This document shows, piece after piece, positions 1,316 through 50,797 of a stretch of 64,000 nt of DNA. The translations under genes and the position numbers were made by a program. This DNA comes from Bacteroidota bacterium (lineage in GTDB: Bacteria; Bacteroidota; Bacteroidia; Flavobacteriales; Weeksellaceae). Under the pieces are notes generated by a model that saw only the letters and a program-made list of their open reading frames with translations, did no database searches and was not told the DNA's origin. How positions within the stretch are numbered: the stretch's first letter is position 1; each line of letters opens with the position of its first letter. Location of the stretch: NCBI GenBank assembly GCA_023457935.1, contig JAEXBA010000019.1, forward strand, positions 2,515 through 66,514. Direction: 5' to 3'.

Positions 1316-2359
1316 TTAAAAATGAACCCAACCCTGAGCTGTAATTTCGGAAAGTTCGTTACTGCCGCGTAAAACCATATAATTTCCCTGCTCCAGATCT
1401 ACCGCATGACCGATTACTGTAAAATCCGGATGGTTTCTTATTTTCTCGAAATCATCAGGTGAAATGGTAAACAGAAGTTCATAATCCTCACCACCGGAAA
1501 GTGCTGCCATTGCAGGATTCAGGTTAAATTCATCCGCAGTGGAAATGGTCAGCGAGTCCATCGGGATTTTTTCTTCGTACAGGCGGAATCCAACCTTACT
1601 CTGATCAGAAAGATGCAGGATTTCTGAAGCCAAACCGTCTGAAATATCCATCATCGAGGTTGGTAAAACATCAAGTTCTTCGAAGATTTTCTTCACATCG
1701 GTTCTTGCTTCCGGTTTCAGCTGTCTTTCAAGAATATAATCGTAACCTTCCATTTCGGGCTGCATATTCGGATTGGCAAGAAAAACAGCATGTTCTCTTT
1801 CCAGAATCTGCAAACCCATATAGGCCGCACCCAAATCTCCGGTAACTACTAAAAGATCATTCGGTTTTGCGCCGCTTCTTTTCACAATATTCGCGGAATC
1901 TTCCAGTCCGATTGCGGTAATACTCATCACAAGTCCGGCATTGGAACTTGTGGTATCGCCACCAATGAGATCAACACCATATCTCTCACATGCCAGTGCA
2001 ATTCCTGCATATATTTCATCCAGTGCTTCCACCGGAAAACGGTTTGAAACTGCAAGAGAAACCAAAATCTGTGTCGGCGCTGCATTCATGGCTGCAATAT
2101 CACTCAAATTAACAACAACCGCCTTATAGCCCAAATGCTTCAAAGGAACATAGCCCAGGTTAAAATGAACACCTTCAGCCAAAACATCGGTTGTAACGAC
2201 TACTTTTTTCCCATCAGGATTGATTACTGCAGCGTCATCTCCAACTGAAATTTCACTAGATGGGTTTTTTAAACTAAATTTTTCGGTAAGATGTTTAATC
2301 AGTCCAAATTCTCCAAGCTGTGAAATGGGTGTAAGATTAAGGTTTTTATCTTCTAACAT
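1316..2359 (-). CDS. thiL: thiamine-monophosphate kinase
   Basis: AIR-synthase-like fold signature: EFGLIKHL, GDDAAV, GGDT. The length of 347 aa fits. Confidence 0.8.
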   Translation of the reverse strand: MLEDKNLNLTPISQLGEFGLIKHLTEKFSLKNPSSEISVGDDAAVINPDGKKVVVTTDVLAEGVHFNLGYVPLKHLGYKAVVVNLSDIAAMNAAPTQILVSLAVSNRFPVEALDEIYAGIALACERYGVDLIGGDTTSSNAGLVMSITAIGLEDSANIVKRSGAKPNDLLVVTGDLGAAYMGLQILEREHAVFLANPNMQPEMEGYDYILERQLKPEARTDVKKIFEELDVLPTSMMDISDGLASEILHLSDQSKVGFRLYEEKIPMDSLTISTADEFNLNPAMAALSGGEDYELLFTISPDDFEKIRNHPDFTVIGHAVDLEQGNYMVLRGSNELSEITAQGWVHF

Positions 2360-2378: not shown

Positions 2379-2879
2379 CTATTTTACTTCAAATACTGAC
2401 GGATCCAGATTTTCAGGGCGAAAAGGCAGTTTTTTGATATCTTCTTTTGTGAAGACGGTATGATTCGGTGATTTAAACTGAGTAAGAACTTCCAGAATAT
2501 CATCAGGTGGATTTGTTGATTTTCTCAGCATCATATCAATCCAGACACCGAAAGCTTCAGAAGTGGCAAGGTGTGTTCCGTCCGGAAGGTAGAATTTATG
2601 AAGAAACTGGTAGATGGATCCGTCTTCAGAAAAACCGTCTATTTCCAGACTTACATATACTTCCTGATCCATATACACTTCCTTGAAGAACGAGAACCTT
2701 TCATGCAGAATTACAGGGCCGATTCCCCAGCGGTTCAGCTCGCGCAGACCCATTTTGTTTTTCGACATAAAAGCCATTCTGGTTTGTGCGCAGTATTCCA
2801 CGTAAGCCGAATTGGCAAGATGGCGGTTGGCATCAATATCGCTCCAGCGGACTTCAAATTTATGGTAGTAAACAGACAT
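2379..2879 (-). CDS. acyl-CoA thioesterase (4HBT/hotdog family)
   Basis: The N-terminus HKFEVRWSDIDANRHLANSAY is hotdog-thioesterase-like. I moved the start to the ATG at 2879 because a TACCTTTG -7 box (2894-2901) sits inside the longer TTG-started ORF. Confidence 0.65.
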   Translation of the reverse strand: MSVYYHKFEVRWSDIDANRHLANSAYVEYCAQTRMAFMSKNKMGLRELNRWGIGPVILHERFSFFKEVYMDQEVYVSLEIDGFSEDGSIYQFLHKFYLPDGTHLATSEAFGVWIDMMLRKSTNPPDDILEVLTQFKSPNHTVFTKEDIKKLPFRPENLDPSVFEVK

Positions 2880-2893
2880 TTTTTTAATTTGTG

Positions 2894-2901
2894 CAAAGGT
2901 A
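2894..2901 (-). promoter_or_regulatory. -7 box for the thioesterase gene
   Basis: TACCTTTG on the minus strand, 14 nt before the ATG at 2879. Confidence 0.45.
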
Positions 2902-2964
2902 CTCAAACGATTTCTACTGCAAAACTTTGTATGGGAAAGAAAATGTGTACAGAACGGCTACATC

Positions 2965-5619
2965 TTAGTCGTTCTCCTTATCTTTTTTTCTGAAGACTCT
3001 TTTCAGAAAGCCTTCTTTCTTTTCCGGTTCCGCTGTGTTTGCCGGTGTCTGTATTTTTTCCTTTACTTCTTTGGCCGTCTTCGAAACACCTTTTCCAACG
3101 GCCTTAGCATCTGTAACTGTTGTTTTTACGGTTTGCTCCGTATTTTCAATGTTCTTGCCGATAAGTGTTTTCTTCAGACCTTCCTGAATTCCCTGCCAGA
3201 ATAAGTTAAAGAAAGATTTCGTTGGATCGCGTTTTACATTGTCCACCGTTACGGTTTCAGGATAGTCTTTCGAATTGGTTCGTACCACCATATTTACGAT
3301 CGCAGAAAGTACTTTATTCTTTTCTTTTGAATCTTTTTTCAGAACCGAAACCTTCAGGTCTTTGTGTTTCATATTCACCACGCCGTTAAGGCCGGTTTTT
3401 GTGCCGTTGAAATTGAAAATAAGATTCTCGATGGCTCCTGTTGCACGTACTTTAAGATAGGGTTCTATAAACGGATTGATTCTGGAAGCCGGCAGATCGG
3501 AAATGTTTCCCGAAATCGAAAACGCATCATTCTGTTTTGCCGTATCCAGATTCCACTTCACATTCATCGGCGAAGCGTTCATAAAGGAAGTTTTTATCGT
3601 AATCGGAATGGCTGTCGGTTTTCCCGGTGATTTCCCGGAATTAAGGTTTTTCACATTCATACTGAAATTACCGAAAACTAGTTTTCCGGGCCCTTCACTC
3701 TGTTTGGTATCTTCCTCATATTCCAGAACGGAGTTTTTGATGTCAAGATTCCCTACAGTCAGCGGAAATTTGATGCTTCGTAACAGTTCACTGTACATTG
3801 GCTTGATGCTCGGATCATCTTTCGGAATCTTACTTCTGAAAATATTCGCCTTTACACCGTTCAGCAGAACCTGAGAAACATTCATGAATTTTTTGTCTGA
3901 AACGAGATCCCAGTTTCCGTTTCCGGTAATCTGGTTCACAGCAATATCGTACAGATCTTTTTCCACAGGAATCATTCGGATAAACTGCGCGCGCGAAACA
4001 GTTGGTTTCATGGCAAAATTGTTCACGAGAAAATTTCCTTTCTGAAACTTGATCAAACCTGCACTCATATTGTAAAATTCTGTGCGGTAACTGAAGTTTT
4101 TCGTAGTGAAATTATAGGTTCCCAGCTTAAAAGGAATTCCCTTTTTCACGGTTTCGGAATTCATTTCAAGATTCTGAACATTTGCATACAGATTGTTGAA
4201 TACCAAAGGGCGGTTCGGCCGGTCAACAGTAAGGTTGGAATTCTTCACTGTAATATTCCGAACCTTTAACGGCAGCTGAATTCCGCGCATTGAAAACTTC
4301 TTTCTTTCCTCGCTTTCGGGCGCAGTAAATTTGCCGTTCAGTGCATCCAGAACCAGATTCTGAACATCAACCGACAGACGGTTCTTTTCAAACTTCCAGC
4401 TGTTGATATCGGCGAAAATATGATTCAACGAAAAATCCAGAAGCGGCTTCGAAGAATACTTCACTTTAGGTTTTACCATAATACCGCGCGATTCCACACT
4501 TTTTGGATTCGCAGAAAGTGAGTTTACTGTAATTTCCTGATCGGGCGTAATGTAATTGAGACCGTTTCCGCCAATAAGAAACTTTTCATAGGAAAACGGA
4601 ATGTTTCCTTTTGCCGTTTCCCTGTCCATTCTCATATTGGAGACGTTAAGATTCAGGGTTTCTGCAGCAAAAAGCCGTGTTTTATCCGGATTCAGAATCT
4701 CTACTTTTGCTTTGTTCATCTGTACATCCTGAAGATTCACATCATAAGTAAAATCCTTTTCTGTTTTGCTTTTCGGAGCCGATGTTGTAAACATTTTTAT
4801 TTCAGGATTCTGAAACGTAACATTGGACAGGGCAATTTTGTTGTTCTTCATCACAATGTCCTTGAAAGTCATCTGATCTGCATTAAAATCAAAAAGGTTA
4901 CGCTTCTTCGGATAGTAACGGATGAACTGATCGTACGTGAGCAAAGGAACGAGTCTGAATTTCTGAATGTCCATAAGACCGTTCTTTGTGGTGATGACGT
5001 TAGCCGTTAAAGCGTATACGTTATCCGGCCGGAAATAAAAATTTCTTCCGTTAATGTCATACTTATCGAAAACCACAGGAAGTTTCTGCTCTACAGATTT
5101 TTCGGTGAGCTGAAGATTGGTAACATCCAGCATAAGATCGTTTACAGAAAGAAACTTCTGCTTTGTGTGGCGGTACATGCTGATATCGCCGTCTTTAATT
5201 TTTAAATTCTTAAAAAGCAGTGGATTTCGCTCTTTCCCTGTGCGGTTGTCAACAGGTTTTGCCAAGGTTACTTTCAGCCGTGGCTTTACCAGCAAAAGGT
5301 CGGAAGTATTGATTTTCTTGTTGAATACTGCATCATAAATTCCCAACCGGCTGATTTTTAAAGAATCAACAGTTCCGTCAACACCGATTACATTCCGGTT
5401 TTCAGGATTTTTACTTTTCACTGCAATTTTGGTTGCCAAGATATTGCCCGTTCCCAAATCCACATCCAGCGTGGAATATTTAATCTCATAATCAGAGTTT
5501 TTTCTGATATAATCAGGAAGATTTTCCTTAAGCCACCAGTTTACCCCAATATTTCCAAGGAGAAAAAGAATGGCCAGAACAGCCAGTGAAATAAGCGATA
5601 TTTTAAGCCACTTTTGCAT
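2965..5619 (-). CDS. large membrane-anchored AsmA/DUF748-like envelope protein
   Basis: 884 aa with a single N-terminal TM helix (ISLISLAVLAILFLLGNIGV), a long beta-rich body and a K/E-rich tail. The family assignment is by resemblance only. Confidence 0.5.
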   Translation of the reverse strand: MQKWLKISLISLAVLAILFLLGNIGVNWWLKENLPDYIRKNSDYEIKYSTLDVDLGTGNILATKIAVKSKNPENRNVIGVDGTVDSLKISRLGIYDAVFNKKINTSDLLLVKPRLKVTLAKPVDNRTGKERNPLLFKNLKIKDGDISMYRHTKQKFLSVNDLMLDVTNLQLTEKSVEQKLPVVFDKYDINGRNFYFRPDNVYALTANVITTKNGLMDIQKFRLVPLLTYDQFIRYYPKKRNLFDFNADQMTFKDIVMKNNKIALSNVTFQNPEIKMFTTSAPKSKTEKDFTYDVNLQDVQMNKAKVEILNPDKTRLFAAETLNLNVSNMRMDRETAKGNIPFSYEKFLIGGNGLNYITPDQEITVNSLSANPKSVESRGIMVKPKVKYSSKPLLDFSLNHIFADINSWKFEKNRLSVDVQNLVLDALNGKFTAPESEERKKFSMRGIQLPLKVRNITVKNSNLTVDRPNRPLVFNNLYANVQNLEMNSETVKKGIPFKLGTYNFTTKNFSYRTEFYNMSAGLIKFQKGNFLVNNFAMKPTVSRAQFIRMIPVEKDLYDIAVNQITGNGNWDLVSDKKFMNVSQVLLNGVKANIFRSKIPKDDPSIKPMYSELLRSIKFPLTVGNLDIKNSVLEYEEDTKQSEGPGKLVFGNFSMNVKNLNSGKSPGKPTAIPITIKTSFMNASPMNVKWNLDTAKQNDAFSISGNISDLPASRINPFIEPYLKVRATGAIENLIFNFNGTKTGLNGVVNMKHKDLKVSVLKKDSKEKNKVLSAIVNMVVRTNSKDYPETVTVDNVKRDPTKSFFNLFWQGIQEGLKKTLIGKNIENTEQTVKTTVTDAKAVGKGVSKTAKEVKEKIQTPANTAEPEKKEGFLKRVFRKKDKEND

Positions 5620-39659: not shown

Positions 39660-39662
39660 AAG

Positions 39663-39746
39663 TACCCCAGACGGGACTTGAACCCGTACGTCCTTGCGGA
39701 CACAGGATTTTAAGTCCTGCGTGTCTACCAGTTCCACCACCAGGGC
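39663..39746 (-). tRNA. tRNA-Leu (anticodon TAA)
   Basis: Hand-folded cloverleaf with anticodon loop CTTAAAA, T arm ACGGG/TTCAAGT/CCCGT and a long variable arm. 84 nt, no encoded CCA; the acceptor stem has G-U pairs. Confidence 0.85.
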
Positions 39747-39791
39747 GGGTAAAAAAAATAGAAGCTTCACAAAAAAACTTCTATTTTGTAG

Positions 39792-39864
39792 AGCGAAAAA
39801 CGGGATTCGAACCCGCGACCCCAACCTTGGCAAGGTTGTGCTCTACCAGCTGAGCTATTTTCGC
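39792..39864 (-). tRNA. tRNA-Gly (anticodon GCC)
   Basis: GCGAAAA/TTTTCGC acceptor stem, anticodon stem-loop CAACC-TTGCCAA-GGTTG, TTCGAAT T-loop and U73 discriminator. Confidence 0.9.
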
Positions 39865-39903
39865 AAAAAAAAATTTCTAAACGAATCTAGAAATTTTTCT
39901 GTG

Positions 39904-39985
39904 TGCGGATGAAGGGACTCGAACCCCCACGCCTCACGGCACCAGATCCTAAGTCTGGCGTGGCTACCAATTACACCACATCCGC
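39904..39985 (-). tRNA. tRNA-Leu (anticodon TAG)
   Basis: GCGGATG/CATCCGC acceptor stem, anticodon stem-loop CCAGA-CTTAGGA-TCTGG and a long variable arm; 82 nt. Confidence 0.9.
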
Positions 39986-40595: not shown

Positions 40596-41234
40596 ATGTT
40601 TCTGCTCGACAAGAATATCATTGCATTTCCTGATCCGGAACTTTATCATCCGGAAGGCGGTCTAATTGCTGTTGGCGGCGATCTCTCTGAAGAAAGAATC
40701 CTTTTGGCTTATCAGTTGGGAATTTTCCCTTGGTTCAATCCGAGTGAAGAAATTCTCTGGTGGTGTCCCGATCCGCGATTTGTGCTGTTTCCGGACAGTC
40801 TGAAAGTATCAAAATCAATGAAAAAAATCCTTCAGAACGAAAATTTTAGTTTTACTGTAAACCAAGCGTTTGAAGAAGTGATTGAAAACTGCGAAAAAAT
40901 GCCGAGAAAAGGTCAGGACGGAACATGGCTTTCCAAAGAACTGCGGGATGTTTTTACCAATCTTCACCATAAAGGAATTGCGAAAAGTGTTGAAGTGTGG
41001 CAGAACGGAAAACTGGTTGGCGGTCTTTACGGCTTACAGTTCGGAAACGTTTTTTGCGGTGAAAGTATGTTTGCCAAGGTGAGCAACGCGTCGAAAGCAG
41101 GTTTTATCCATTTTGTTCAGAACAGTAAGTTTGAATTAATCGACTGCCAGGTTCATACCGCCCATTTGGAATCCTTGGGCGCAACCATGATTCCGAAGCA
41201 AAAGTATCTTGAAATTCTCAGAAAAAATTTATGA
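40596..41234 (+). CDS. aat: leucyl/phenylalanyl-tRNA--protein transferase
   Basis: GGDLS..RILLAYQLGIFPW, WWCPDPR and GESMF motifs. Confidence 0.88.
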   Translation: MFLLDKNIIAFPDPELYHPEGGLIAVGGDLSEERILLAYQLGIFPWFNPSEEILWWCPDPRFVLFPDSLKVSKSMKKILQNENFSFTVNQAFEEVIENCEKMPRKGQDGTWLSKELRDVFTNLHHKGIAKSVEVWQNGKLVGGLYGLQFGNVFCGESMFAKVSNASKAGFIHFVQNSKFELIDCQVHTAHLESLGATMIPKQKYLEILRKNL

Positions 41235-42124
41235 ATCCTGAAAAAGAAAAATGGCTCTTACTCCTTGTCCTGTCGGTAATCTGGGGTTCCTCGTTTATTC
41301 TGATTAAAAAATCGCTTGATCATTTTAATCCGTATCAGGTTGGAGCGCTGCGCGTGTTAATTGCGGGAATTCTGTTGTTACCGGTTGCTATTCCGAATAT
41401 TAAAAGTTTTCCGAAGAAACAGTTGAAATGGCTTCTTATTGCCGGCATTTCGGGAAATTTTATTCCGATGTTTCTTTTTCCTATTGCCGAGACCGAAATC
41501 AGCAGCAGCATTGCAGGAATTATCAACTCAATGATGCCGATATTCGTGATTATCGTCGGTGCTTTACTGTGGAAGTTTTCCACCACAAAAAAACAGATTA
41601 TCGGTGTTATTATAAGCTTTAGCGGCGCGTGTATTCTTGCTCTAAGCGGTCATGAAGGCGGAAACATTAAATTCTTTCCAATATTTCTGCTTCTTATTGC
41701 AACACTTCTGTATGCCGTCAGCACAACAACCGTGAAATCAAAACTCAATAATATTCCTGCCAAAATCCTGTCGTCTTACGTATTTTCTTTTGTTCTGCTG
41801 CTTCCTTCACTGATTGCTTTGGTCCTCAGTGGCTTTTTCAATGATTTTAAAGGGACAGAATCCGATCTGATCGGACTTGGATTTGTTTCTCTGCTTTCAA
41901 TTTTCGGAACCGGACTCGCAATGATGCTGAATTACCGTCTGCTGAATATTTCCACGCCGCTGTTTGCGTCAACGGTAACACTTCTGATGCCTGTTGTTGC
42001 AGTAATTTGGGGCGTTTTAGACGGTGAAAAATTAACATTAACCCAATCTTTCGGAGGACTGATTATTCTTGCCGGACTTTTATTTTTGCGCTCAAAACCC
42101 GCTGCCAAGCATAAAATTTCCTAA
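41231..42124 (+). CDS. EamA/DMT-family transporter
   Basis: 10 TM segments in two EamA-like halves. It overlaps aat by 4 nt. Confidence 0.75.
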   Translation: MNPEKEKWLLLLVLSVIWGSSFILIKKSLDHFNPYQVGALRVLIAGILLLPVAIPNIKSFPKKQLKWLLIAGISGNFIPMFLFPIAETEISSSIAGIINSMMPIFVIIVGALLWKFSTTKKQIIGVIISFSGACILALSGHEGGNIKFFPIFLLLIATLLYAVSTTTVKSKLNNIPAKILSSYVFSFVLLLPSLIALVLSGFFNDFKGTESDLIGLGFVSLLSIFGTGLAMMLNYRLLNISTPLFASTVTLLMPVVAVIWGVLDGEKLTLTQSFGGLIILAGLLFLRSKPAAKHKIS

Positions 42125-42147
42125 CTTAACTCCATTAAAATCAGAAT

Positions 42148-43308
42148 ATGGAAGTATCAATATCGGATCAGTTGGTCTCAATACGCCGTCATCTTCATCA
42201 GATTCCTGAAATCGGGTATCAGGAAACCGAAACGTCAAAATACATCTGCGAACAGCTTGATCTTCTGGAAATTAGCTATCAAAAAGGATTTGCAGGAGGA
42301 ACCGGTGTTTTGGCAGAAATTTCAAAGGGAAAAGGAAAAACAGTTTTACTTCGGGCAGATATCGACGCGCTGCCAATGCAGGAAATTACCGGTCTGGAAT
42401 TCGCTTCCAAAAATCAGGGTGTGATGCATGCCTGTGGACACGACATGCACACGACGATGCTTCTTGGGTCAATAATGAAGTTGAAAGATGCTGACTTTGA
42501 GGGAAAAGTTAAATTTATTTTTCAGCCGTCTGAAGAGGGAACCAACGGAGATAAGGAAAAAAAATCCGGCGGACAGAGGGTTGTAGAGGAAGGCGTTCTG
42601 GACGGTGTTGATTTTGCTTTGGCTTTACATGTAAATCCGCTTGCTCCGGTTGGGATGCTGAACTACACACCGGGAACCGCCCTTGCCTGCGCCGGAAATT
42701 TCACTATTGAAGTTTTCGGAAAATCCAGTCACGCCGGTGCGGCACCTCATCTTGCGATTGATGCGGTTTTGATAGGAACCGCGTTGGTTCAGGCGTTCCA
42801 GAGCATAGTCGCAAGAAATGTAGCCCCGAATGATGAGGGCGTGGTTTCTGTTTCATCTTTTCATGGCGGAACGGCACCAAATGTTATTGCAGATTATGTG
42901 AAAATGACCGGTACACTCCGCGCAATGACCGACGAAAATTTTGAAATGATCTTGGGCAAAATCAAGCAGATAATAGACGGAATTTCAAAAGCTTATGGCG
43001 CGGAAATTAAGTTTACGCTCGACAGCCATTACCTGAGCGTTATCAACGATCCTGCTGTTCATGAAAGACTGGAATCTGTAGGAAATTCAGTTTTTAAAAT
43101 GGGTTTACATCCGATTCCGCCCACCTTGGGCGCCGAGGATTTTGCTTTTTACTCCAGAAAAGTGCCTTCAATGTTTTATTTTATCGGTGCGATGAGCGAG
43201 CAGAAAGGCGAATTTTTCCTTCACCATCCGAAAGTGATTTTCAATGAAGACTGTATGGTTTTGGGAAGCAAATTTTTGGCTAAATCGGCTCTGGAGCTTC
43301 TGAAATAA
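42148..43308 (+). CDS. M20-family amidohydrolase (N-acyl-amino-acid amidohydrolase-like)
   Basis: HQIPEIGYQE, MHACGHDMH and FQPSEEG metal-binding motifs. Confidence 0.8.
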   Translation: MEVSISDQLVSIRRHLHQIPEIGYQETETSKYICEQLDLLEISYQKGFAGGTGVLAEISKGKGKTVLLRADIDALPMQEITGLEFASKNQGVMHACGHDMHTTMLLGSIMKLKDADFEGKVKFIFQPSEEGTNGDKEKKSGGQRVVEEGVLDGVDFALALHVNPLAPVGMLNYTPGTALACAGNFTIEVFGKSSHAGAAPHLAIDAVLIGTALVQAFQSIVARNVAPNDEGVVSVSSFHGGTAPNVIADYVKMTGTLRAMTDENFEMILGKIKQIIDGISKAYGAEIKFTLDSHYLSVINDPAVHERLESVGNSVFKMGLHPIPPTLGAEDFAFYSRKVPSMFYFIGAMSEQKGEFFLHHPKVIFNEDCMVLGSKFLAKSALELLK

Positions 43309-43352
43309 GGAAAATCCAGGTTTCTCTATTCTCTACGGTTCATAAATAAAAA

Positions 43353-43381
43353 CTCCGGCTGCAAGCAAGCTACGGCCGGAG
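43353..43381 (-). terminator. terminator after the 58-aa ORF
   Basis: CTCCGGC/GCCGGAG stem followed by TTTTTATTT on the minus strand. Confidence 0.55.
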
Positions 43382-43402
43382 AAAACTAATTATTGAGAAC
43401 TG

Positions 43403-43579
43403 TTATTTTTGTGTATATATCATAAATGCGAAAAAAGCCAATGTAAGAGATAGTCCGCTATAAATCCATACTTTGGGATTGCTTGGAGAAAAACTGGTTA
43501 TCATCAGCATATAAACCACAAGCAGGGAAGACAGTGCGAAAAAAGCAGCGGTTATTTTTTTTAAGTTCTTGGTTTTCAT
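43403..43579 (-). CDS. 58-aa two-TM hairpin membrane protein (below the ORF-track cutoff)
   Basis: Hand translation: MKTKNLKKITAAFFALSSLLVVYMLMITSFSPSNPKVWIYSGLSLTLAFFAFMIYTQK. It is bracketed by two hairpin terminators. Confidence 0.45.
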   Translation of the reverse strand: MKTKNLKKITAAFFALSSLLVVYMLMITSFSPSNPKVWIYSGLSLTLAFFAFMIYTQK

Positions 43580-43595
43580 AATATTGTTTTTTTAT

Positions 43596-43625
43596 GAAAA
43601 GTTCCGCCGCTTTTCACGGCGGAAC
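43596..43625 (-). terminator. rho-independent terminator after the orphan secreted-protein gene
   Basis: Perfect 9-bp GC-rich stem GTTCCGCCG/CGGCGGAAC with a 7-nt loop, followed by TTTT on the minus strand. It starts 2 nt after the stop codon. Confidence 0.75.
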
Positions 43626-43627
43626 AT

Positions 43628-44071
43628 TTAGTCATGGTTAATTGTCATCAGAGTATCCCCTGCAACGTTATATTCTCCTTTTTTATAGATATCCTTGCTG
43701 GAAAGGAGAATCTCGTACGTGTAAATTCCTTTGGGTAAATCAAAGGTACATTCCTTTGTATCTTTCTGGATCACAAGCTCCTTTTTGATCTCTTCATCCT
43801 CAACTTTTCCGTTCAAGCGGACGGTAATTTTTTCGTCCATCTTATTCTTAAAGCAGAAGCTGTCGACTGATTTGGAATTGGAATTGGATTTGTCTCCAGG
43901 TCCTTTTAGGGCTTGATAACCCTGTATTAATAGGTTTCCGATTAAAATTCCACGGTCAAGATCCGATATTTGGTTAACCTGCGCTTTGCTAAATGTTACT
44001 GCTGTACATGCAACAAAAAAGAGCGACACTTGACACGCCGAGAAGCGCAAGTCCACCAATTGTGTTGTCAT
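43628..44071 (-). CDS. orphan secreted protein or lipoprotein with a small beta-rich C-terminal domain; start uncertain, possibly the 3' part of a frameshifted gene
   Basis: From M19 of the 165-aa ORF: MTTQLVDLRFSACQVSLFFVAC... is signal or lipobox-like. The C-terminal part has two Cys and a PKGIYTYEI beta motif. A strong terminator follows the stop. Confidence 0.45.
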   Translation of the reverse strand: MTTQLVDLRFSACQVSLFFVACTAVTFSKAQVNQISDLDRGILIGNLLIQGYQALKGPGDKSNSNSKSVDSFCFKNKMDEKITVRLNGKVEDEEIKKELVIQKDTKECTFDLPKGIYTYEILLSSKDIYKKGEYNVAGDTLMTINHD

Positions 44072-44168
44072 TCCAAGTCCCGTTAAAATTTTCTGTGAGA
44101 AACCAGGCAGAAGCCCATACTGCAAATAGCAGTGGTATTACTCCGAAAATGTTTAGGATTGCTTTCAT
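43989..44168 (-). CDS. 59-aa two-TM protein (below the ORF-track cutoff), overlapping the next ORF by 83 nt
   Basis: Hand translation: MKAILNIFGVIPLLFAVWASAWFLTENFNGTWNDNTIGGLALLGVSSVALFCCMYSSNI. It may be the 5' part of one gene split at the A6/T6 tract at 44015-44020. Confidence 0.4.
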   Translation of the reverse strand: MKAILNIFGVIPLLFAVWASAWFLTENFNGTWNDNTIGGLALLGVSSVALFCCMYSSNI

Positions 44169-44247
44169 GATTTTTGGTTTTAAGAGTTAGTATTTAATGA
44201 AAAAATTCTGTGGTGTAGAGTGTCGTGATTAAAGCTTTGTTCATAAT

Positions 44248-44517
44248 TTAAATTTTATTCTGATTTTGCGCAATTTTTTTGAAGTAGAAGAAGAATAATA
44301 ATGTTATTATCACGAAAAAAGGCATCCCTTGAAACGATAGTATCGTACTTACTTTATGATCATTTATTAAAAAAATAAAATCTTTATACTCTATCGAAAA
44401 AGACTTACTCTTATCCATTTCTAAAAAAGCGCTATAGAACTGTAACAATGCAAGGAATAAGAACAGTAATAGTGAACATATTACTGATTTTACAATGAAA
44501 ATAATATTACTATTCAT
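44248..44517 (-). CDS. 89-aa two-TM membrane protein, orphan
   Basis: Hydrophobic helices at about residues 5-30 and 63-79. The start is 3 nt after the upstream stop; the gene is very AT-rich. Confidence 0.5.
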   Translation of the reverse strand: MNSNIIFIVKSVICSLLLFLFLALLQFYSAFLEMDKSKSFSIEYKDFIFLINDHKVSTILSFQGMPFFVIITLLFFFYFKKIAQNQNKI

Positions 44518-44520
44518 AAT

Positions 44521-45177
44521 TTATTTACTTACAATTAAACCAATGCCATTGGATCTAACTTCGTTTACTGTCGTAATTGTCATATAATCAACATAGATTT
44601 CTTTGCCGTCAACAATAATTGGCACACCACTCGACATCTTGCTATTAAGACAAGTACAATTAAATTCCACTGTGGTCGTATGCTTAGGTGGGTTTCCAGA
44701 AGTGTAGGTATATTTCACTTTAACGCAGCATAAACCAACAGCAACTAAAACAGGCCAAATTTTCTTTTTATTGGAGAGAGTCTTGCTATAAATTAGCTGT
44801 GGTTTTGAGTAAAAAAACTCGATACCTAAGTCAATTATATTAGGACCGCGACTATTAATTTTAGAACTTTTTATTACTTTGCCATCTTTATAAAATTGGA
44901 AAATCATTTCCCCTGAGTTTGATTCTATTGGTTCGATTATTAAACCATTATCGGTTTTTTCAAACTTAACGACTTTATCATTATTATTTTCTGCAAAAAA
45001 ATTAAAATAATAAGGAACATTTTTCTCTGCAGATTCCAAATTCCACTCGTTTTCAAGATGTTCCTTACCAAAAATTTTTGTGGGTTGTTCATCTTTAGGA
45101 AAATCTAGAGTTTGCCCAAAAGCAAAGCTTCCGATCAGTACCATTAATACACTAAATAGTTTTAATAAATTTTTCAT
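44521..45177 (-). CDS. orphan secreted protein with a Cys-containing C-terminal region
   Basis: Signal peptide MKNLLKLFSVLMVLIGSFAFGQ, an internal hydrophobic segment IWPVLVAVGLCCV and a CC...CTC cysteine cluster. I recognise no family. Confidence 0.5.
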   Translation of the reverse strand: MKNLLKLFSVLMVLIGSFAFGQTLDFPKDEQPTKIFGKEHLENEWNLESAEKNVPYYFNFFAENNNDKVVKFEKTDNGLIIEPIESNSGEMIFQFYKDGKVIKSSKINSRGPNIIDLGIEFFYSKPQLIYSKTLSNKKKIWPVLVAVGLCCVKVKYTYTSGNPPKHTTTVEFNCTCLNSKMSSGVPIIVDGKEIYVDYMTITTVNEVRSNGIGLIVSK

Positions 45178-45370
45178 GGTTATTTTTTGTCTTCTCAAAA
45201 ATTAATTTTTTGTTTGTTAATGAGCATCCGGGCGAGAGAAGCACTTGTTTTTTTAACCCGTTGGCTTTTTTGGTTTTTGTTTTTTTGCTGTTTTACAGAT
45301 TTTAGCCGCTGTTACCGCTATCAGGAATAAGGACAATCGCCTGATTGCTCTAGCCTATCAATCGAGCGGT

Positions 45371-46891
45371 GTGGTATTAGTGGAAACGTACGATTATTCA
45401 AAAGCGCTTGAGCACCTACTGTTATCCTTAGAGTATTTTGAGAAGAACGAAAGCAAAGAATGGGTTAATGTATCAAACAACTATATTGGGATCATAAAAA
45501 TGTCATCAGGAGATTATATCGGAGCACAAAGAATTTTTGATGAGACCTATAAATATTACAAGTGGAAGATTGAAACGAAAAATACCATATCGAACAACAA
45601 CCGACTGCTTAGTTCTACTGTTCTGTTAGCGCAAGCAGAAGCGTACCTTCAGAAATTTGATGAAAGCTCCAAGCTGTTAACACAGGCACAATTGTTAATT
45701 GATAAAAACCCGAACCTAAACAGGGGAAAAGACAAATATTACACTGCATTAGGAATAGTTAATCTTCAACAGCATAAATTTTCTCAAGCAATCCAAAGTT
45801 TTAAAAACTCGCTCAGAGAGTCTGCTGATCCAAAAGACAACATTAAAACAAATTTTTATCTAGCTGTCTCATACTGGAAAAACAATCAGCATGAAAATGC
45901 ATTTTCCTACTTTAAAACTGTTGAGAATAAGTTTACCGAAACTTCCAATATGCCTGTAGAGTTTCGTTCAATGTTTGAGTTTTTCATAGAATATTATAAA
46001 AATAAGGGTGATCGGGAAAAACAACTGGAATATGTAGATAAACTTCTTAATTATGACAAGTCATATAATGTAGAGCAGAAAAATATTGATTCCAGAATAC
46101 AGACAGATTACGATGAAAAAAAACTGCTCCAGGAAAAAGAAAAGATTGAAAATAAGAGAATCAAAGAAAGGTGGGCTTTTTCTGCAGCAGTTATTCTATT
46201 GATAATAGGAATTGTTTTCTATTCTATTTATCGCCGCAGAAAAATGCGCGAACAAAGAAGTGAAAATATATCACAGAACCCGAACAGTAGTTCACTTTTA
46301 CAAGATAGTACGCAAAATGAAACTGCAGAAAAACATAAAGTTCCAGAAAACGATAACAATTTTACTGAATCAGACCTTATCAACACAGTGAAAATCATTG
46401 ATAATGAGGCAGAGAACAGCAATTTGGAAAATCCGAAATCAAATGATGATATTGCTAATGTTCCGCTGCCACAAAATACAGTTTTGAAAGAAATAGATTA
46501 TGAAGCCTATCTGCCAATCAATAAGCCAACAGTAAAGCATATTCTTAAAAACTTGGAAAGCTTTGAAAAAAACAAAAAATTTCTTAGAAAGAATATCCGG
46601 CTGGTTGATATCGCAAGCGAATTCAGCACCAACGAAAAATATCTAGCACGAGCTATCAAAGTAAAAACGGGAAAAATATTCAACCATTATATCAATGACC
46701 TTAGGCTGGCACACTTAAAAGACCTCATCAATGAAGACCCTTCCACAACACAAAAAAAAGTGAAGGACATCTCCAATTATTTAGGCTACTCTTCACCGGA
46801 AGCTTTTACTGCGATTTTCCGCGAAAGATTTGGAGTTCCGCCATCGGTCTATTTTAAAGAGGAAACAAATCAAAATGATGATTCCCAGTAG
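45371..46891 (+). CDS. TPR-repeat / transmembrane / AraC-type HTH one-component regulator (5' end apparently disrupted)
   Basis: TPR-like repeats, TM helix WAFSAAVILLIIGIVFYSIY and a C-terminal AraC HTH (DISNYLGYSSPEAFTAIFRERFGVPPSVY). There is only a GTG start, and the frame stays open upstream to 45257. Confidence 0.65.
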   Translation: MVLVETYDYSKALEHLLLSLEYFEKNESKEWVNVSNNYIGIIKMSSGDYIGAQRIFDETYKYYKWKIETKNTISNNNRLLSSTVLLAQAEAYLQKFDESSKLLTQAQLLIDKNPNLNRGKDKYYTALGIVNLQQHKFSQAIQSFKNSLRESADPKDNIKTNFYLAVSYWKNNQHENAFSYFKTVENKFTETSNMPVEFRSMFEFFIEYYKNKGDREKQLEYVDKLLNYDKSYNVEQKNIDSRIQTDYDEKKLLQEKEKIENKRIKERWAFSAAVILLIIGIVFYSIYRRRKMREQRSENISQNPNSSSLLQDSTQNETAEKHKVPENDNNFTESDLINTVKIIDNEAENSNLENPKSNDDIANVPLPQNTVLKEIDYEAYLPINKPTVKHILKNLESFEKNKKFLRKNIRLVDIASEFSTNEKYLARAIKVKTGKIFNHYINDLRLAHLKDLINEDPSTTQKKVKDISNYLGYSSPEAFTAIFRERFGVPPSVYFKEETNQNDDSQ

Positions 46892-46911
46892 TTTATAATG
46901 AATTAAACAAA

Positions 46912-46936
46912 AAATCCCGAAACAGTTTCGGGATTT
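46912..46936. terminator. bidirectional terminator between the AraC-type regulator and the TPR gene
   Basis: AAATCCCGAAAC/GTTTCGGGATTT near-perfect palindrome flanked by an A run on one side and a T run on the other. Confidence 0.7.
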
Positions 46937-46939
46937 ATC

Positions 46940-48310
46940 TTATTTTTTCTTTGCTTTTACATTTTTCGCTTTATCCTTTATAAAAGGGTATTTCTGCTGC
47001 ATATCTTCAAGCATTTCGGGATTAAGCTCCATTGCTTTCTGAAGGTTCTCTAAGCTTTCATTTTCCATCTTTAAATGATGGTAGCTGTTGCTGAGCTGAA
47101 AATAAAGTTCGGCGCGTGGATGCACTTTCAACGCTTCATTCAGAATGGTGATGGCATCTTCATATTCGCCAATCAGCATCATCACTTCTGTGTATGCATA
47201 CCAGTTGTAAAAACGGTTTGGCTCTGCTTTCACGAGTTTTTTCAGACAGGCAAGACTTTCTTCATATTTTCCCGAAGAAATGTACAGAAACGCCAGCCGC
47301 TTCTGATAATCCAGATTGTTGTCGTTAAGCAGTGTGGCTTCTTTGGCAAAATGAAGGGCTTCCTTCATGCCGCCCATTTCTTCATAAATAAAGCTCTGCT
47401 CCATCATCGACATATAGAACTGCGGATCCTCAATCAGAGATTTCTGAAAAGAATTCAGTGCCGGAATCAGCTGATTGAGTTCACGATAACACAACCCGAT
47501 TTTATAAAACGTGAAGCTTTTGGTATATTCCAGCGCAAGCATTTCTTCGTAAACCTCAATTGCTTTTTCCCACTGTTTCTGTGCTTCTAAACACGCTCCT
47601 TTATTGGCATAAACGCCAACGGAATTGGAGTTGATAGCCAAAAGATAATCAAAACCTCTTATCGCTTCTTCGTAATTTTTACGGTTGAAGTAAAACTGGC
47701 CGTACTCGTACCAAGCCGTTTCTGAAAACGGAAACTCGTCGAGATACTGATTCAGAAACTCAATGGCTTCTTCCGGTTTGTTCAGGTCGTTAAAACACAG
47801 CATACTGTTTTCCAGTGCGTATTCGTCCTGTGGGTCTGCTTTCAGGGCAAGTTTGTAGTGTTTCAGTGCGTCAAAAGGATCGCCAAGATTCACCAGTTCA
47901 TCCGCAATGAAATTATGGAGAAAATTCTCCTCTTCTTCCATTTTGAGTGCTTTTTCACAAAAATCAATCGCTCTTCTCGGGTTTCCGAGGTTTGAATAGT
48001 ATTTTGCGCAGCACACCAGAAAATCAAGGTTTTCCTGCGAGGATTCCTTCAGCTCGTCAATAAGGTTTTTGGCCTGACTGTAATCTTCAAGTTCAAGCAA
48101 AACCTCCAGTTTTTTAACTTTTATTTCCTGGGAATTAGGGTGCAGTTTCAGTCCGAAACTTACGGCCTGTTCTGCGTAGGAAATGTCACCAAGTTCAAGA
48201 TAGTAAATAATGATGTCTTCCAGTTCTTCGGTATCGAAGTAGTATTCCTCATTATTCTCAATCATCTGCTCGAATTTTGCAGCGAGCTCATTTTCAAAAA
48301 ATTCTTCCAA
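46940..48310 (-). CDS. tetratricopeptide-repeat protein
   Basis: 456 aa of repeated 34-residue A..Y/W...G...A patterns. The apparent start codon is TTG. Confidence 0.75.
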   Translation of the reverse strand: MEEFFENELAAKFEQMIENNEEYYFDTEELEDIIIYYLELGDISYAEQAVSFGLKLHPNSQEIKVKKLEVLLELEDYSQAKNLIDELKESSQENLDFLVCCAKYYSNLGNPRRAIDFCEKALKMEEEENFLHNFIADELVNLGDPFDALKHYKLALKADPQDEYALENSMLCFNDLNKPEEAIEFLNQYLDEFPFSETAWYEYGQFYFNRKNYEEAIRGFDYLLAINSNSVGVYANKGACLEAQKQWEKAIEVYEEMLALEYTKSFTFYKIGLCYRELNQLIPALNSFQKSLIEDPQFYMSMMEQSFIYEEMGGMKEALHFAKEATLLNDNNLDYQKRLAFLYISSGKYEESLACLKKLVKAEPNRFYNWYAYTEVMMLIGEYEDAITILNEALKVHPRAELYFQLSNSYHHLKMENESLENLQKAMELNPEMLEDMQQKYPFIKDKAKNVKAKKK

Positions 48311-48439
48311 TCGTTATCTCTCCGTCTTTTCAAAATCTGAAATTAGCTTGCAGGCTTTGAAAAACTTCATATTTATTATTAAGTATTCCTAAATTAAGAA
48401 TTCTGATGTAATTAAATCAATTTTTGTGCAAAACTTTTT

Positions 48440-49822
48440 TCAGATCAGACTTCTGATTTTAGCAATAATACTGTCACCAAGTGTATCCGCTTCCTCCTGA
48501 GATTTCGCTTCTGTATAAATCCTGATGATCGGTTCTGTATTTGATTTTCTGAGATGAACCCAGTTTTCGGCAAAGTCAATTTTTACACCGTCAACAGTAG
48601 AAACCTCTTCATTTTGATATTCATTCTGCATTTTGGTTAAAAGGGCGTCAACGTCTATTTCCGGTGTAAGTTCAATTTTCTTTTTGCCCATGAAATAAGC
48701 AGGATAACCGGCACGAAGTTCGGAAACCGTCTTGTTTTCTTTCGCTAAATGCGTCAGAAACAGAGCGATTCCAACCAATGAATCTCTTCCGTAATGAAGG
48801 TCAGGGTAAATGATTCCGCCGTTTCCTTCACCACCGATAACTGCATTTTTCTCTTTCATTAAATTCACCACATTCACCTCTCCTACAGCACTTGCGAAAT
48901 ATTCTGAATTGTGGTTTTTAGCAACATCTCTCAAAGCACGGCTTGAAGAAAGGTTTGAAATGGCTACTCCGTTTTTATGTTTCAAAAGATAATCTGCAAC
49001 GGCAACCAAAGTGTATTCTTCGCCAAACATTTCACCTTTTTCATCGATTAAAGCCAGTCTGTCCACATCAGGATCTACAACGATTCCCAAGTCTGCATTC
49101 TCTTTCTTAACGAGTTCGCAGATGTCGGTTAAATGTTCTTTCAAAGGCTCAGGATTGTGCGGAAACTGTCCGTTTGGTTCGCAGTAAAGCTTTACAACTT
49201 CGCAGCCCAGTTTTTCCAAAAGCGGTGGTAAAGAAATTCCGCCTGTTGAGTTTACAGCATCCAAAACCACTTTGAATTTTTTCTCCTTAATTGCTTCTGC
49301 ATCTACCATTGGTAAATCCAGAATTTTTTGAATATGAATGTCAAACGCATCATCACGGGTTTCGTATTTACCCAAATTGTCCACCTCAGCGTAATTGAAA
49401 TCTTCACTTTCTGCCAATGCCAACACATCAGCACCGTTTTCAGCATTGATGAATTCTCCTTTTTCGTTCAGAAGTTTCAGAGCATTCCACTGTTTTGGAT
49501 TGTGGGAAGCGGTTAAGATAATGCCTCCGTCAGCATTGAGTTCCGGAACCATTACCTCAACGGTTGGTGTTGTAGAAAGTCCTAAATCCACCACATTTAT
49601 TCCTAATCCCTGCAAAGTAGCAGTAACTAGTGAGGAAACCATCTGTCCGGAAATTCTCGCATCGCGGCCGATAACAAGAGTGAGATCTTTTTTACTTTTA
49701 TTGTTCTGCAGCCAGGTTCCGAAAGCGGATGCGAATTTTACCACATCAAGCGGCGTTAAGTTATCGTCTACTTTTCCGCCTATTGTTCCGCGTATTCCGG
49801 ATATACTTTTGATTAATGACAT
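48440..49822 (-). CDS. glmM: phosphoglucosamine mutase
   Basis: SGIRGT, the TASHNP phosphoserine loop, DPDVDR and GGEGNGG motifs. Confidence 0.9.
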   Translation of the reverse strand: MSLIKSISGIRGTIGGKVDDNLTPLDVVKFASAFGTWLQNNKSKKDLTLVIGRDARISGQMVSSLVTATLQGLGINVVDLGLSTTPTVEVMVPELNADGGIILTASHNPKQWNALKLLNEKGEFINAENGADVLALAESEDFNYAEVDNLGKYETRDDAFDIHIQKILDLPMVDAEAIKEKKFKVVLDAVNSTGGISLPPLLEKLGCEVVKLYCEPNGQFPHNPEPLKEHLTDICELVKKENADLGIVVDPDVDRLALIDEKGEMFGEEYTLVAVADYLLKHKNGVAISNLSSSRALRDVAKNHNSEYFASAVGEVNVVNLMKEKNAVIGGEGNGGIIYPDLHYGRDSLVGIALFLTHLAKENKTVSELRAGYPAYFMGKKKIELTPEIDVDALLTKMQNEYQNEEVSTVDGVKIDFAENWVHLRKSNTEPIIRIYTEAKSQEEADTLGDSIIAKIRSLI

Positions 49823-49853
49823 AGTCTTAAGCTTATTTAAAAATAAATTTCTG

Positions 49854-49861
49854 CAAATTTA
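49854..49861 (-). promoter_or_regulatory. -7 box for glmM
   Basis: TAAATTTG on the minus strand, 31 nt before the ATG at 49822. Confidence 0.5.
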
Positions 49862-49948
49862 CGAAAAATGAAACCGGGCGAAAATTAAAATCGATTAACA
49901 AAAAAAACCCGGCATAAAACCGGGTTGATTATTTAGATTTTGAAATTC

Positions 49949-50797
49949 TTAGAAAGAATATTTGAAACCTACGTTAAGGCCAAAATTAGAGAACGGAAGG
50001 GATTCCTTAGTTAATTTGGTCGCAGAGCTGTTTCCTGAGTTGTCTCCCGGATTTACCTGATCAACGTACTCATAATGAATGTCATCATATTGCCAGCCAT
50101 AATCTTCATTAAGCTCATTTGTTCCATTGTAATTTGCTTCAGTATAAGTTCCTTTCTTAGGGGAATATGCAAGCGCCATGGATCTAAGTTCAGTATAAAT
50201 TGACATATTCTGATTAAGAGCATAATCAATACCTAACGCTCCGGTCACACCTATAGCTGTTCCACCTTCCATCTCGTATACCTCCTTATACGTATTGTTG
50301 CTCCAGGTGTCTGTATAATCCTGATTTACTTTTGGCATTGCTCCAATTACAGCTCCAAATTTAGCGTAAGGAGTAACAGTCGCTGGATTTGCTTTTACAA
50401 CAATTTTTGGCTGAATCAACAGCATTCTTCCCGAAAGTTCATACTTCTCTAATTCTCCGTCATTCCATTTTTCAGTCACTTCAGTTTTGCTGCCTTTCAG
50501 ATAATCCAATCCTAGTTCCGCACCAAGATTTTTGCTGAACATATAGCCCAGATCCAAGCCAAAATTTGCTCCTTTACCGTATGAAACACCAACAGCTTCT
50601 TGCGACCAACCGGAAGTTTGCTGTGTTCTGTTGACCCAGCGACCGTAATCTTTTGCGATGCCGAAGTTGTATCCACCGTGAACGCCAATGTACAATCCGG
50701 TGTTTCCTTCTTGGATAGGGTTAACTTTAGTTTGCGCATTTACCTGAGTAGAAAATGCCAGCGCCATAACAGCTACTGCTAAAAAACTTTTTTTCAT
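49949..50797 (-). CDS. outer-membrane beta-barrel (porin-family) protein
   Basis: Signal peptide MKKSFLAVAVMALAFSTQVNAQ, alternating beta strands and a terminal FKYSF. Confidence 0.65.
   Translation of the reverse strand: MKKSFLAVAVMALAFSTQVNAQTKVNPIQEGNTGLYIGVHGGYNFGIAKDYGRWVNRTQQTSGWSQEAVGVSYGKGANFGLDLGYMFSKNLGAELGLDYLKGSKTEVTEKWNDGELEKYELSGRMLLIQPKIVVKANPATVTPYAKFGAVIGAMPKVNQDYTDTWSNNTYKEVYEMEGGTAIGVTGALGIDYALNQNMSIYTELRSMALAYSPKKGTYTEANYNGTNELNEDYGWQYDDIHYEYVDQVNPGDNSGNSSATKLTKESLPFSNFGLNVGFKYSF

Follow-up and report, generated by a model that had tools for sequence, protein, structure and literature searches.

What are the small, unfamiliar genes that lie between an M20 amidohydrolase gene and the conserved tetratricopeptide repeat (TPR) and glmM genes of a Weeksellaceae bacterium, and could they form a toxin/immunity system? 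We analyzed this question in a stretch of 64,000 nucleotides (the window; contig JAEXBA010000019.1 of assembly GCA_023457935.1, positions 2,515 to 66,514), in which an AT-rich islet carries the genes for five small proteins, designated by their lengths in amino acids (aa) as p218, s89, s59, p147 and s58, together with a divergent regulator that has TPR repeats, a transmembrane (TM) segment and an AraC-type helix-turn-helix (HTH). The islet is real and acquired, its genes are those of a recurrent and undescribed module, and the copy in the window is decaying; the function of the module is what we infer. The evolutionary and anatomical part of this account is very probably correct. The complete explanation, that the islet is an acquired and partly decayed copy of a conserved, undescribed Flavobacteriia locus that works by a bacteriocin-like effector mechanism, has in our judgment an even chance of being right.

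An AT-rich islet inserted between the M20 and TPR genes

The bounds of the islet are defined by the closest relative in a comparison set of 80 Weeksellaceae loci around the TPR gene (loci from other genomes carry L numbers). In this locus, L001, the TPR protein and GlmM are 85% and 95% identical to those of the window, the gene order is glmM-TPR-M20-EamA-Aat, and the gap between the TPR and M20 genes consists of a bidirectional terminator alone. Homology of L001 to the window ends at 43308 and picks up again at 46905. Comparison of the M20-to-glmM interval across the family showed that the islet genes are absent from the 10-kb flanks of this site in 80/80 loci, L001 included.

The insert also stands out by composition. 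Its guanine-plus-cytosine (GC) fraction is 0.340, relative to 0.415±0.010 with a minimum of 0.391 for 267 other segments of the same length, and its tetranucleotides differ from those of the remainder of the window by an L1 distance of 0.343, relative to 0.150±0.016, a value reached by 0/134 segments, which makes it the most deviant tetranucleotide profile of the whole window. An earlier note on this DNA had claimed a visible drop in composition at this place, and both measures confirm it; the figure of roughly 30% GC that it gave for 44.2-46.9 kb is right for 44201-45315 (0.30) and slightly low for 45316-46904 (0.346). The remaining segment, 43.3-44.2 kb, has a GC fraction of 0.38. Gene by gene, GC is 0.31 for p218, 0.25 for s89 and 0.34 for the regulator, and is near that of the host for p147 (0.40) and s59 (0.42). 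The islet is mosaic: its p218-s89 cassette is AT-rich, and its s59-p147 tail is of near-host GC.

As the earlier note had also observed, no mobility gene or tRNA marks the borders. No integrase or transposase occurs among the open reading frames (ORFs) listed for 41000-50000, none of the corresponding Pfam domains matches in eight scanned proteins (the islet proteins, the regulator, M20 and TPR), and the nearest tRNAs to the islet lie at 39662-39985. Candidate flanking direct repeats, among them an 18-nt pair of 83% identity at 43299/45321, are at the level expected by chance in AT-rich DNA. Of the features typical of genomic islands, the insert therefore has the deviant composition and the absence from relatives, and lacks an integrase or transposase, a tRNA target and flanking repeats. 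Judged from these features of its sequence, the islet is a horizontally acquired insertion.

p218 and s89 are a constrained gene pair

The islet ORFs lie where the earlier note had placed them, with p218, s89, s59, p147, a terminator and s58 on the minus strand and the regulator divergent from them (Table 1), although the small proteins shorter than 60 aa number two (58 and 59 aa) and not three as it had counted. Its description of p218 as a secreted protein with a CC...CTC cluster is borne out, as is the start of the 89-aa, two-TM s89, whose ATG lies 3 nt past the p218 stop codon; s89 is probably translationally coupled to p218. A hydropathy scan gives two TM segments apiece in s58, s59 and s89. 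None of the five small proteins has a match in Pfam, NCBIfam, PADLOC or PHROGs, in line with the earlier failure to recognize a domain family in any of them, and the anti-phage defense models of PADLOC-DB returned 0 families for six proteins.

In a collection of 5.8 billion proteins p218 accounts for 2 clusters, itself and one 67%-identical relative in L081, and an exhaustive HMMER search of 1.84 billion representatives yielded a p218 family of 16 proteins at E ≤ 1e-3, most of them ~190-230 aa long. Full-length members have Bacteroidota-style signal peptides; the mature part of p218 comprises 196 aa. The family alignment shows near-invariant residues at G111-P112, C150-C151 and C174/C176, the cysteines falling in the motif ...WPxxVxxxxCCV(K/E)V...(F/W)(D/N)CxCLS. 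A profile search of p218 against PDB sequences gave a LolA match at E 0.2, which is noise, and an internal hydrophobic stretch, IWPVLVAVGLCCV, was rejected as a TM helix as it is below the 17-residue hydropathy threshold, although the stretch is longer in some family members.

A gene of the s89 family lies directly downstream of the p218-family gene in 6/6 contexts (the window, L081, L128, L129, L134 and L136) at 26-67% identity, where BLASTP with the window s89 reaches only the L081 and L129 members and the other three are assigned by a shared inter-helix loop motif in the alignment. This motif, S-x-x-Y-x-N-F-x-F-x-I-N, is conserved across the family. Between the window and L081 copies, which are ~30% divergent at the DNA level, dN/dS is 0.195 for p218 and 0.233 for s89, indicating that both are real, constrained genes under purifying selection. 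The pair thus has the small, immediately downstream and co-inherited second gene that is typical of toxin/immunity loci.

These values also bear on whether the small ORFs might be chance frames in AT-rich junk DNA. The shortness of s58 and s59, the lack of s59 among called genes in public collections and the lack of s58 relatives outside the species would fit such a reading. It is nonetheless scarcely credible, and largely refuted for p218, s89, s59 and p147, given the dN/dS of ~0.2, the retention of the s89 family beside p218 in all six contexts, the recurrence of an s59/s51 family directly upstream of p147 and the many homologues of p147 itself (see below).

The p218 leader is found on other proteins as well. 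The DNA for the p218 signal peptide (45117-45188) is 83% identical to that of the unrelated p163 of L081 (L081:1497-1568), and the same leader is present on two more unrelated proteins in L131. In the window and in L131 this leader has the form KLFSVLMV(L/M)IGSFAFGQ and stands in front of mature proteins that are unrelated to each other. Shared leader DNA on unrelated proteins suggests recombination within the leader. Separately, the p218-s89 pair is followed in three contexts by a gene for a secreted protein of ~150 aa, from a family in which the motif G...DC.....C is invariant; the window lacks this gene (Table 1).

A recurrent module with an exchangeable cassette

The genes p218, s89 and p147 recur in independent genomes as an undescribed module beside a TPR-TM-AraC or TPR-kinase sensor. 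L136 has the layout of the window in intact form, with a signal peptide-bearing AraC regulator (AraC579) divergent from the genes p201, s95 and p172, which belong to the p218, s89 and p147 families, respectively. In L134 a TPR-HisKA_3 kinase and a response regulator are followed by p221, s95 and p162, and L135 is arranged alike. The association of a sensor-regulator with such genes, which the earlier note had read from one locus, is therefore real at the level of families. In L081 the order is p219 (the 67% relative of p218) and s86, then p163, a lipoprotein gene, s51 and p136, and ~1 kb past this cassette lie a relaxase gene (PF03432), a NikA-like gene and a gene encoding a 207-aa coiled-coil/TM protein.

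Comparison of L136 with L089 (C. shandongense) shows that the two loci are 69.6% identical over 2289 bp of regulator and promoter and 77.9% identical over 389 bp of the p147 gene. The 1.1-1.3 kb between these conserved parts is unrelated, encoding p201 and s95 in L136 versus p222 and a thioredoxin-like protein in L089, and an hhalign comparison of the p218 and p222 families found nothing in common beyond the signal peptide. The p218-s89 pair is thus one of several non-homologous cassettes that occupy the slot flanked by the regulator and the p147 gene, both of which are conserved. Thioredoxin-like genes are present in the sibling cassettes of L089, L092, L095, L097 and L128. L131 has one of the closest full-length homologues of the regulator (41%). 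Its operon contains a p147-family gene and encodes two proteins that bear the leader and have glycine-rich C-termini; a small TM gene comes after each. No match in Pfam or NCBIfam was obtained for these proteins.

The conserved end of the module is p147. The earlier note had treated this beta-rich secreted protein as an orphan, a status that does not hold, as it has >200 homologues of ~135 aa in Chryseobacterium, Epilithonimonas, Bergeyella and metagenomes. The family has two invariant cysteines, and an AlphaFold2 (AF2) model built from 121 sequences predicts a helix at 37-55 and a seven-strand beta-sandwich, with a predicted local distance difference test (pLDDT) score of 85-91 for residues 68-147. 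Fold searches of PDB and BFVD gave just generic Ig-like and carboxypeptidase-regulatory-like beta-sandwiches (template-modeling score ≤ 0.44), a p147 profile found nothing among PDB sequences, and the hhalign alignment of the p147 and p150 families is confined to the signal peptides. A p147-family gene ends a same-strand string of genes in 28 loci, in which the genes upstream vary and include shared-leader secreted proteins, tiny TM proteins and, in some loci, thioredoxin-like proteins. Sensors or regulators are usually near (XRE in 7 of these loci, a TPR-kinase with response regulator in 5, TPR-TM-AraC elsewhere). In L081, L095 and L096 the gene directly upstream of the p147-family gene is a homologue of s59; the exact s59 sequence is missing from the called genes of the protein collection.

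The window copy has lost part of its regulator and part of its operon

The earlier note had described the divergent gene as a membrane-spanning regulator with TPR repeats and an AraC HTH. The domains are there: the 506-aa ORF carries TPR_12, a TM segment at residues 270-286 and a C-terminal HTH of the AraC/XylS type (HTH_18, PF12833, residues 414-496; E 3.4e-15, 56.5 bits versus a cutoff of 33.6). What it lacks is the full-length signal peptide-TPR-TM-HTH architecture. Its 601-652-aa homologues (P0124, P0125, P0127 and L089 AraC611) have ~125 extra N-terminal residues that include a signal peptide, and in-frame homology of the window regulator (AIRNKDNRLIALAYQSSG...) begins only at 45316. The frame is open from 45257 and has no start codon before a GTG at 45371, the next ATG being at 45500. 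As read from this frame, the window regulator is a 5'-truncated remnant from which ~125 codons are missing, along with the signal peptide and the start codon.

The position at which homology begins is a breakpoint relative to sister strain L091. The flanks of L091 are 99.4% identical to the window, and its blastn homology to the window stops at 45315; beyond this point L091 has repeats resembling repetitive extragenic palindromic (REP) elements, CCCGTAAG, and then a small lipoprotein gene, an order shared with L131. This is most simply read as a single deletion with one end within the regulator and the other 138 bp upstream of p218. Three unrelated copies of the locus have, upstream of their first cassette gene, an array of short REP-like hairpins built around CCCGTAAG, of which GATCCCGTAAGATTAGC is one example (Table 1), and the array in the window appears to have been deleted along with the 5' end of the regulator.

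A second lesion lies within the operon. L091 has s62, a 39-aa gene and an intact 138-aa p138 that starts MKIEFIATVF with a normal signal peptide, MKIEFIATVFVACTAVTFSKAQ. The window is without 363 bp of this sequence (L091 2760-3122), such that the 3' end of s62, the 39-aa gene and the 5' end of p138 are gone; s59 is 93% identical to L091 s62 over 55 aa and divergent afterwards. The deletion joined the end of s59 to a frame that is not its own and took from p147 the native start and ~9 initial codons, so that p147 overlaps s59 (by ~80 nt, in different frames). A different explanation, that s59 and p147 are one gene split by a frameshift at a T6 run, was rejected since the L091 and L081 homologues show two genes and a 363-bp deletion. 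The sequence is 100% identical in three independent assemblies, so neither the truncation nor the deletion is an artifact of the window.

Could the module nevertheless be intact, with the regulator made from an internal start (GTG 45371 or ATG 45500) and driving a live toxin/immunity or signaling operon? The 506-aa frame is open with whole TPR, TM and HTH_18 parts, gene callers annotate a 463-aa regulator product, and p218, s89 and s58 are undamaged. We consider this unlikely, however, because 4/4 close homologues of at least 600 aa have the ~125 additional N-terminal residues with a signal peptide, because homology begins exactly at the breakpoint with no start codon, and because p147 has lost its native start. 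In addition, a TPR domain of ~270 aa would presumably need to be translocated as an N-tail, in opposition to the positive-inside charges that follow the TM segment.

Proposed function and its alternatives

In the mechanism that we propose, an intact sensor-regulator with a signal peptide, extracytoplasmic TPR, a TM helix and an AraC HTH (elsewhere a TPR histidine kinase with its response regulator), which sits divergent from or upstream of an operon that has a variable cassette first and a secreted p147-family beta-sandwich last, would turn this operon on. The p218 protein would be exported and disulfide-bonded and would be a bacteriocin-like effector whose site of action is the cell envelope. 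The s89 and s59-type proteins would protect the inner membrane of the producer from p218, or handle p218 there, and p147 would be an accessory common to all cassette types. In the window this system has been crippled by the lost 5' end of the regulator, the deleted 39-aa gene and the fusion of s59 to p147.

We advance the effector/immunity function tentatively, as a best guess from locus architecture. It is strengthened by the cassette slot, the shared leader, the paralogous cassettes with glycine-zipper ends and the linkage to a mobilizable element. The earlier note had been reminded of toxin/immunity or envelope-signaling modules, and the architecture of the locus strengthens the toxin/immunity part of that comparison; homology does not, and the comparison stays an interpretation. 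A broader reading, speculative though possible, is that of an undescribed antagonism system with a wide distribution in the Flavobacteriia, in which a sensor that is maybe responsive to peptides with a double-glycine (GG) leader controls swappable effectors of the general secretory (Sec) pathway that have one leader, tiny immunity partners and a dependence on p147. The effectors may be cysteine-rich and disulfide-bonded, or have glycine-zipper ends, and the window copy may persist for its immunity gene.

Several observations weigh against the proposed mechanism. The main objection is that p218 has a Sec signal alone, with no C-terminal domain of the type IX secretion system (T9SS), no lipobox and no nearby ATP-binding cassette (ABC)/C39 exporter; without an outer-membrane export device its passage of the outer membrane is unexplained. 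Searches of Pfam and NCBIfam at E ≤ 0.1 gave no match to the T9SS C-terminal sorting domain (TIGR04183/PF18962) for p218 or p147. No module protein resembles a known toxin, immunity or secretion component by sequence, nor does p147 by fold, and the AF2 model of p218, built on a 2-sequence alignment, has a pLDDT of 33 and is unusable. The window copy is without a thioredoxin-like gene, and two p218-family contexts (L128 and L129) are without a p147 gene in the sequence available. Finally, the 1.5 kb upstream of p218 in L091 holds the REP-like repeats and the lipoprotein gene and no regulator, so the order of events is one that we infer.

The chief rival is a non-antagonistic module, an envelope or periplasm accessory (for example a disulfide-bonded protein of the periplasm or cell surface that has a beta-sandwich partner and a chaperone in the membrane), which TPR sensors would induce on envelope or environmental cues. 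Sec signals with no outer-membrane export device are what such a module would have, thioredoxin/TlpA-like genes are linked to it in sibling loci, many p147-family loci lie among housekeeping genes, and the p147 fold is a generic beta-sandwich. We regard this explanation as doubtful, since replacement of non-homologous cassettes between conserved flanks is unusual for housekeeping envelope systems, and since a leader common to unrelated proteins, tiny TM genes after proteins that have glycine-rich C-termini, linkage to mobilization genes and extreme rarity and patchiness are all atypical of them.

The relaxase and NikA-like genes of L081 raise a further alternative, in which p218-s89 is cargo of a mobilizable element and serves that element in surface/entry exclusion or another conjugation-related envelope function. 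The 67%-identical L081 copy, ~1 kb from the coiled-coil/TM, relaxase and NikA-like genes, is the case for it. The other five p218-family contexts have no mobilization genes, neither p218 nor p147 has a match in 72,556 plasmid records, and circularity of L081 is not shown, there being no terminal overlap; this alternative is very unlikely.

Comparison with known systems

The likeness of the islet to bacteriocin/immunity loci is one of layout only. Bacteroidetocins (class IIf) of Bacteroidales are peptides of ~42 aa with a GG leader and a C39-peptidase ABC exporter, encoded beside a five-TM protein, and a thiol oxidoreductase encoded in the locus is thought to form the disulfides of the toxin (PMC6671954). 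The module is alike in its four-cysteine secreted product, the adjacent membrane protein, the thiol oxidoreductase in sibling cassettes (L089, L092 and L128) and its restriction to Bacteroidota. It is unlike in that p218 is a Sec protein of 196 mature residues, an ABC/C39 gene and sequence similarity are both lacking, and no oxidoreductase is encoded in the window copy; of GG-leader peptide, C39 ABC exporter, thiol oxidoreductase and multi-TM protein, the islet offers small TM proteins only. A second comparison is with BcpT/BcpI, on the mobilizable plasmid pBCPT of Phocaeicola, where BcpT is a novel 499-aa toxin activated by proteolysis and BcpI a small immunity lipoprotein (PMC9308784). Common to both are a toxin (here a candidate) with no known similarity, a very small gene immediately downstream and mobilization genes nearby, as in L081. 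However, s89 is a two-TM protein and BcpI a lipoprotein, and there is no homology. Polymorphic toxin/immunity and bacteriocin loci likewise have swappable cassettes between conserved flanks, a shared leader and a tiny TM gene after each cassette, but the conserved part here is a Sec signal peptide, with no delivery domain and no recognizable toxin domain.

For the regulator, the full-length family has an extracytoplasmic TPR region, one TM segment and a cytoplasmic DNA-binding domain, an arrangement that we take to be like that of one-component regulators of the ToxR/CadC type. TPR peptide sensors of the RRNPP type are cytoplasmic. Genes for GG-leader-like peptides adjoin orthologous regulators in L089 and L136, which is a point of likeness to these systems; the AraC-type HTH_18 at the C-terminus and the truncation of the window copy are points of difference. 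We know of no assigned signal for the TPR-TM-AraC and TPR-kinase sensors of Bacteroidota, and the locus is a concrete test case for them.

If the effector/immunity function were true, the module would constitute a new, sequence-unrelated family of antibacterial and immunity proteins in the Flavobacteriia, which include fish, poultry and opportunistic human pathogens, and the cassette slot between the sensor gene and the p147 gene would provide a genetic handle on it. Even with no function assigned, the islet is a clean case of cassette exchange and then decay, in which two deletions can be dated between strains of 99.4% identity.

Other features of the islet and its relatives

Coordinates are collected in Table 1. 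A region of ~45 nt upstream of the p218 ATG is alignable to L081 as well. A sigma-70 promoter scan was at chance level, the model being unsuited to Bacteroidota, and Rfam gave sub-threshold noise only. The s58 protein is identical in the sister-strain contigs L090 and L091 and forms a singleton cluster; it has no tblastn match in any other locus, no sensitive database search having been made for it.

Table 1. Coordinates of the islet, its genes and related features in the window and in other loci.
Feature	Position	Strand	Remarks
AT-rich inserted islet	43309..46904	.	M20 stop codon to TPR-gene terminator; 3596 bp
s58, predicted two-TM protein	43403..43579	-	58 aa; ORF and hydropathy; separate unit beyond the operon terminator
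Intrinsic-terminator-like hairpin closing the p218-p147 operon	43601..43625	-	10-bp stem with 7 GC pairs, then T run
p147, predicted secreted helix and 7-strand beta-sandwich	43628..44071	-	conserved last gene of the module
s59, predicted two-TM protein with FLTENF motif	43989..44168	-	s62/s51 family; C-terminus changed by the deletion
Junction of the 363-bp deletion relative to L091	44016..44019	.	blastn against L091 (L091 bases 2760-3122)
s89, predicted two-TM partner of p218	44248..44517	-	conserved inter-helix loop motif
p218, predicted Sec-signal secreted protein	44521..45177	-	signal peptide MKNLLKLFSVLMVLIGSFAFGQ; CC...CTC cluster
p218 upstream region, presumed promoter	45178..45315	-	common with L091 up to breakpoint 45315
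5'-truncated TPR-TM-AraC regulator	45316..46891	+	listed ORF 45371-46891; TPR_12, HTH_18, TM
Bidirectional terminator hairpin of regulator remnant and TPR gene	46912..46936	.	11-bp stem, both strands
REP-like arrays	L091:400-1480; L081:1-80; L131:5700-6400		upstream of the first cassette gene
Small ORFs beside regulators	L089:2401-2595; L136:2622-2807; L088:2437-2598		53-64 aa
Secreted family with G...DC.....C motif	L128:1431-1862; L129:7203-7655; L081:1472-1963; L104:430-888, 1770-2234		~150 aa

Small ORFs of 53-64 aa adjoin orthologous TPR-TM-AraC regulators, and those of L089 and L136 have a GG-type leader of the Bacteroidota, KKLSLKK(L/M)Q..K. Their neighbors are lanthipeptide dehydratase genes in L089 and two Peptidase_S15 genes in L088 and L136. 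The ORFs with this leader could be signal peptides or precursors of ribosomally synthesized and post-translationally modified peptides; they have no counterpart in the window. L088, from a C. shandongense-like genome, also has rve-integrase and AAA_22 genes for Tn7/Mu-like transposition proteins (L088:8255-11166) ~2 kb downstream of p136; the 86%-identical L089 is without them.

Outside the islet, the tRNA genes at 39662-39985 are a minus-strand trio, Leu-TAA, Gly-GCC and Leu-TAG, 3.3 kb from the islet with conserved genes between. The M20 amidohydrolase gene (42148-43308) is itself variable, being present only in L001 among the 80 related loci, and in ~30 loci EamA is found 0.1-1 kb beyond the TPR gene with no M20 between them. 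Gene gain has therefore recurred in the TPR-EamA interval.

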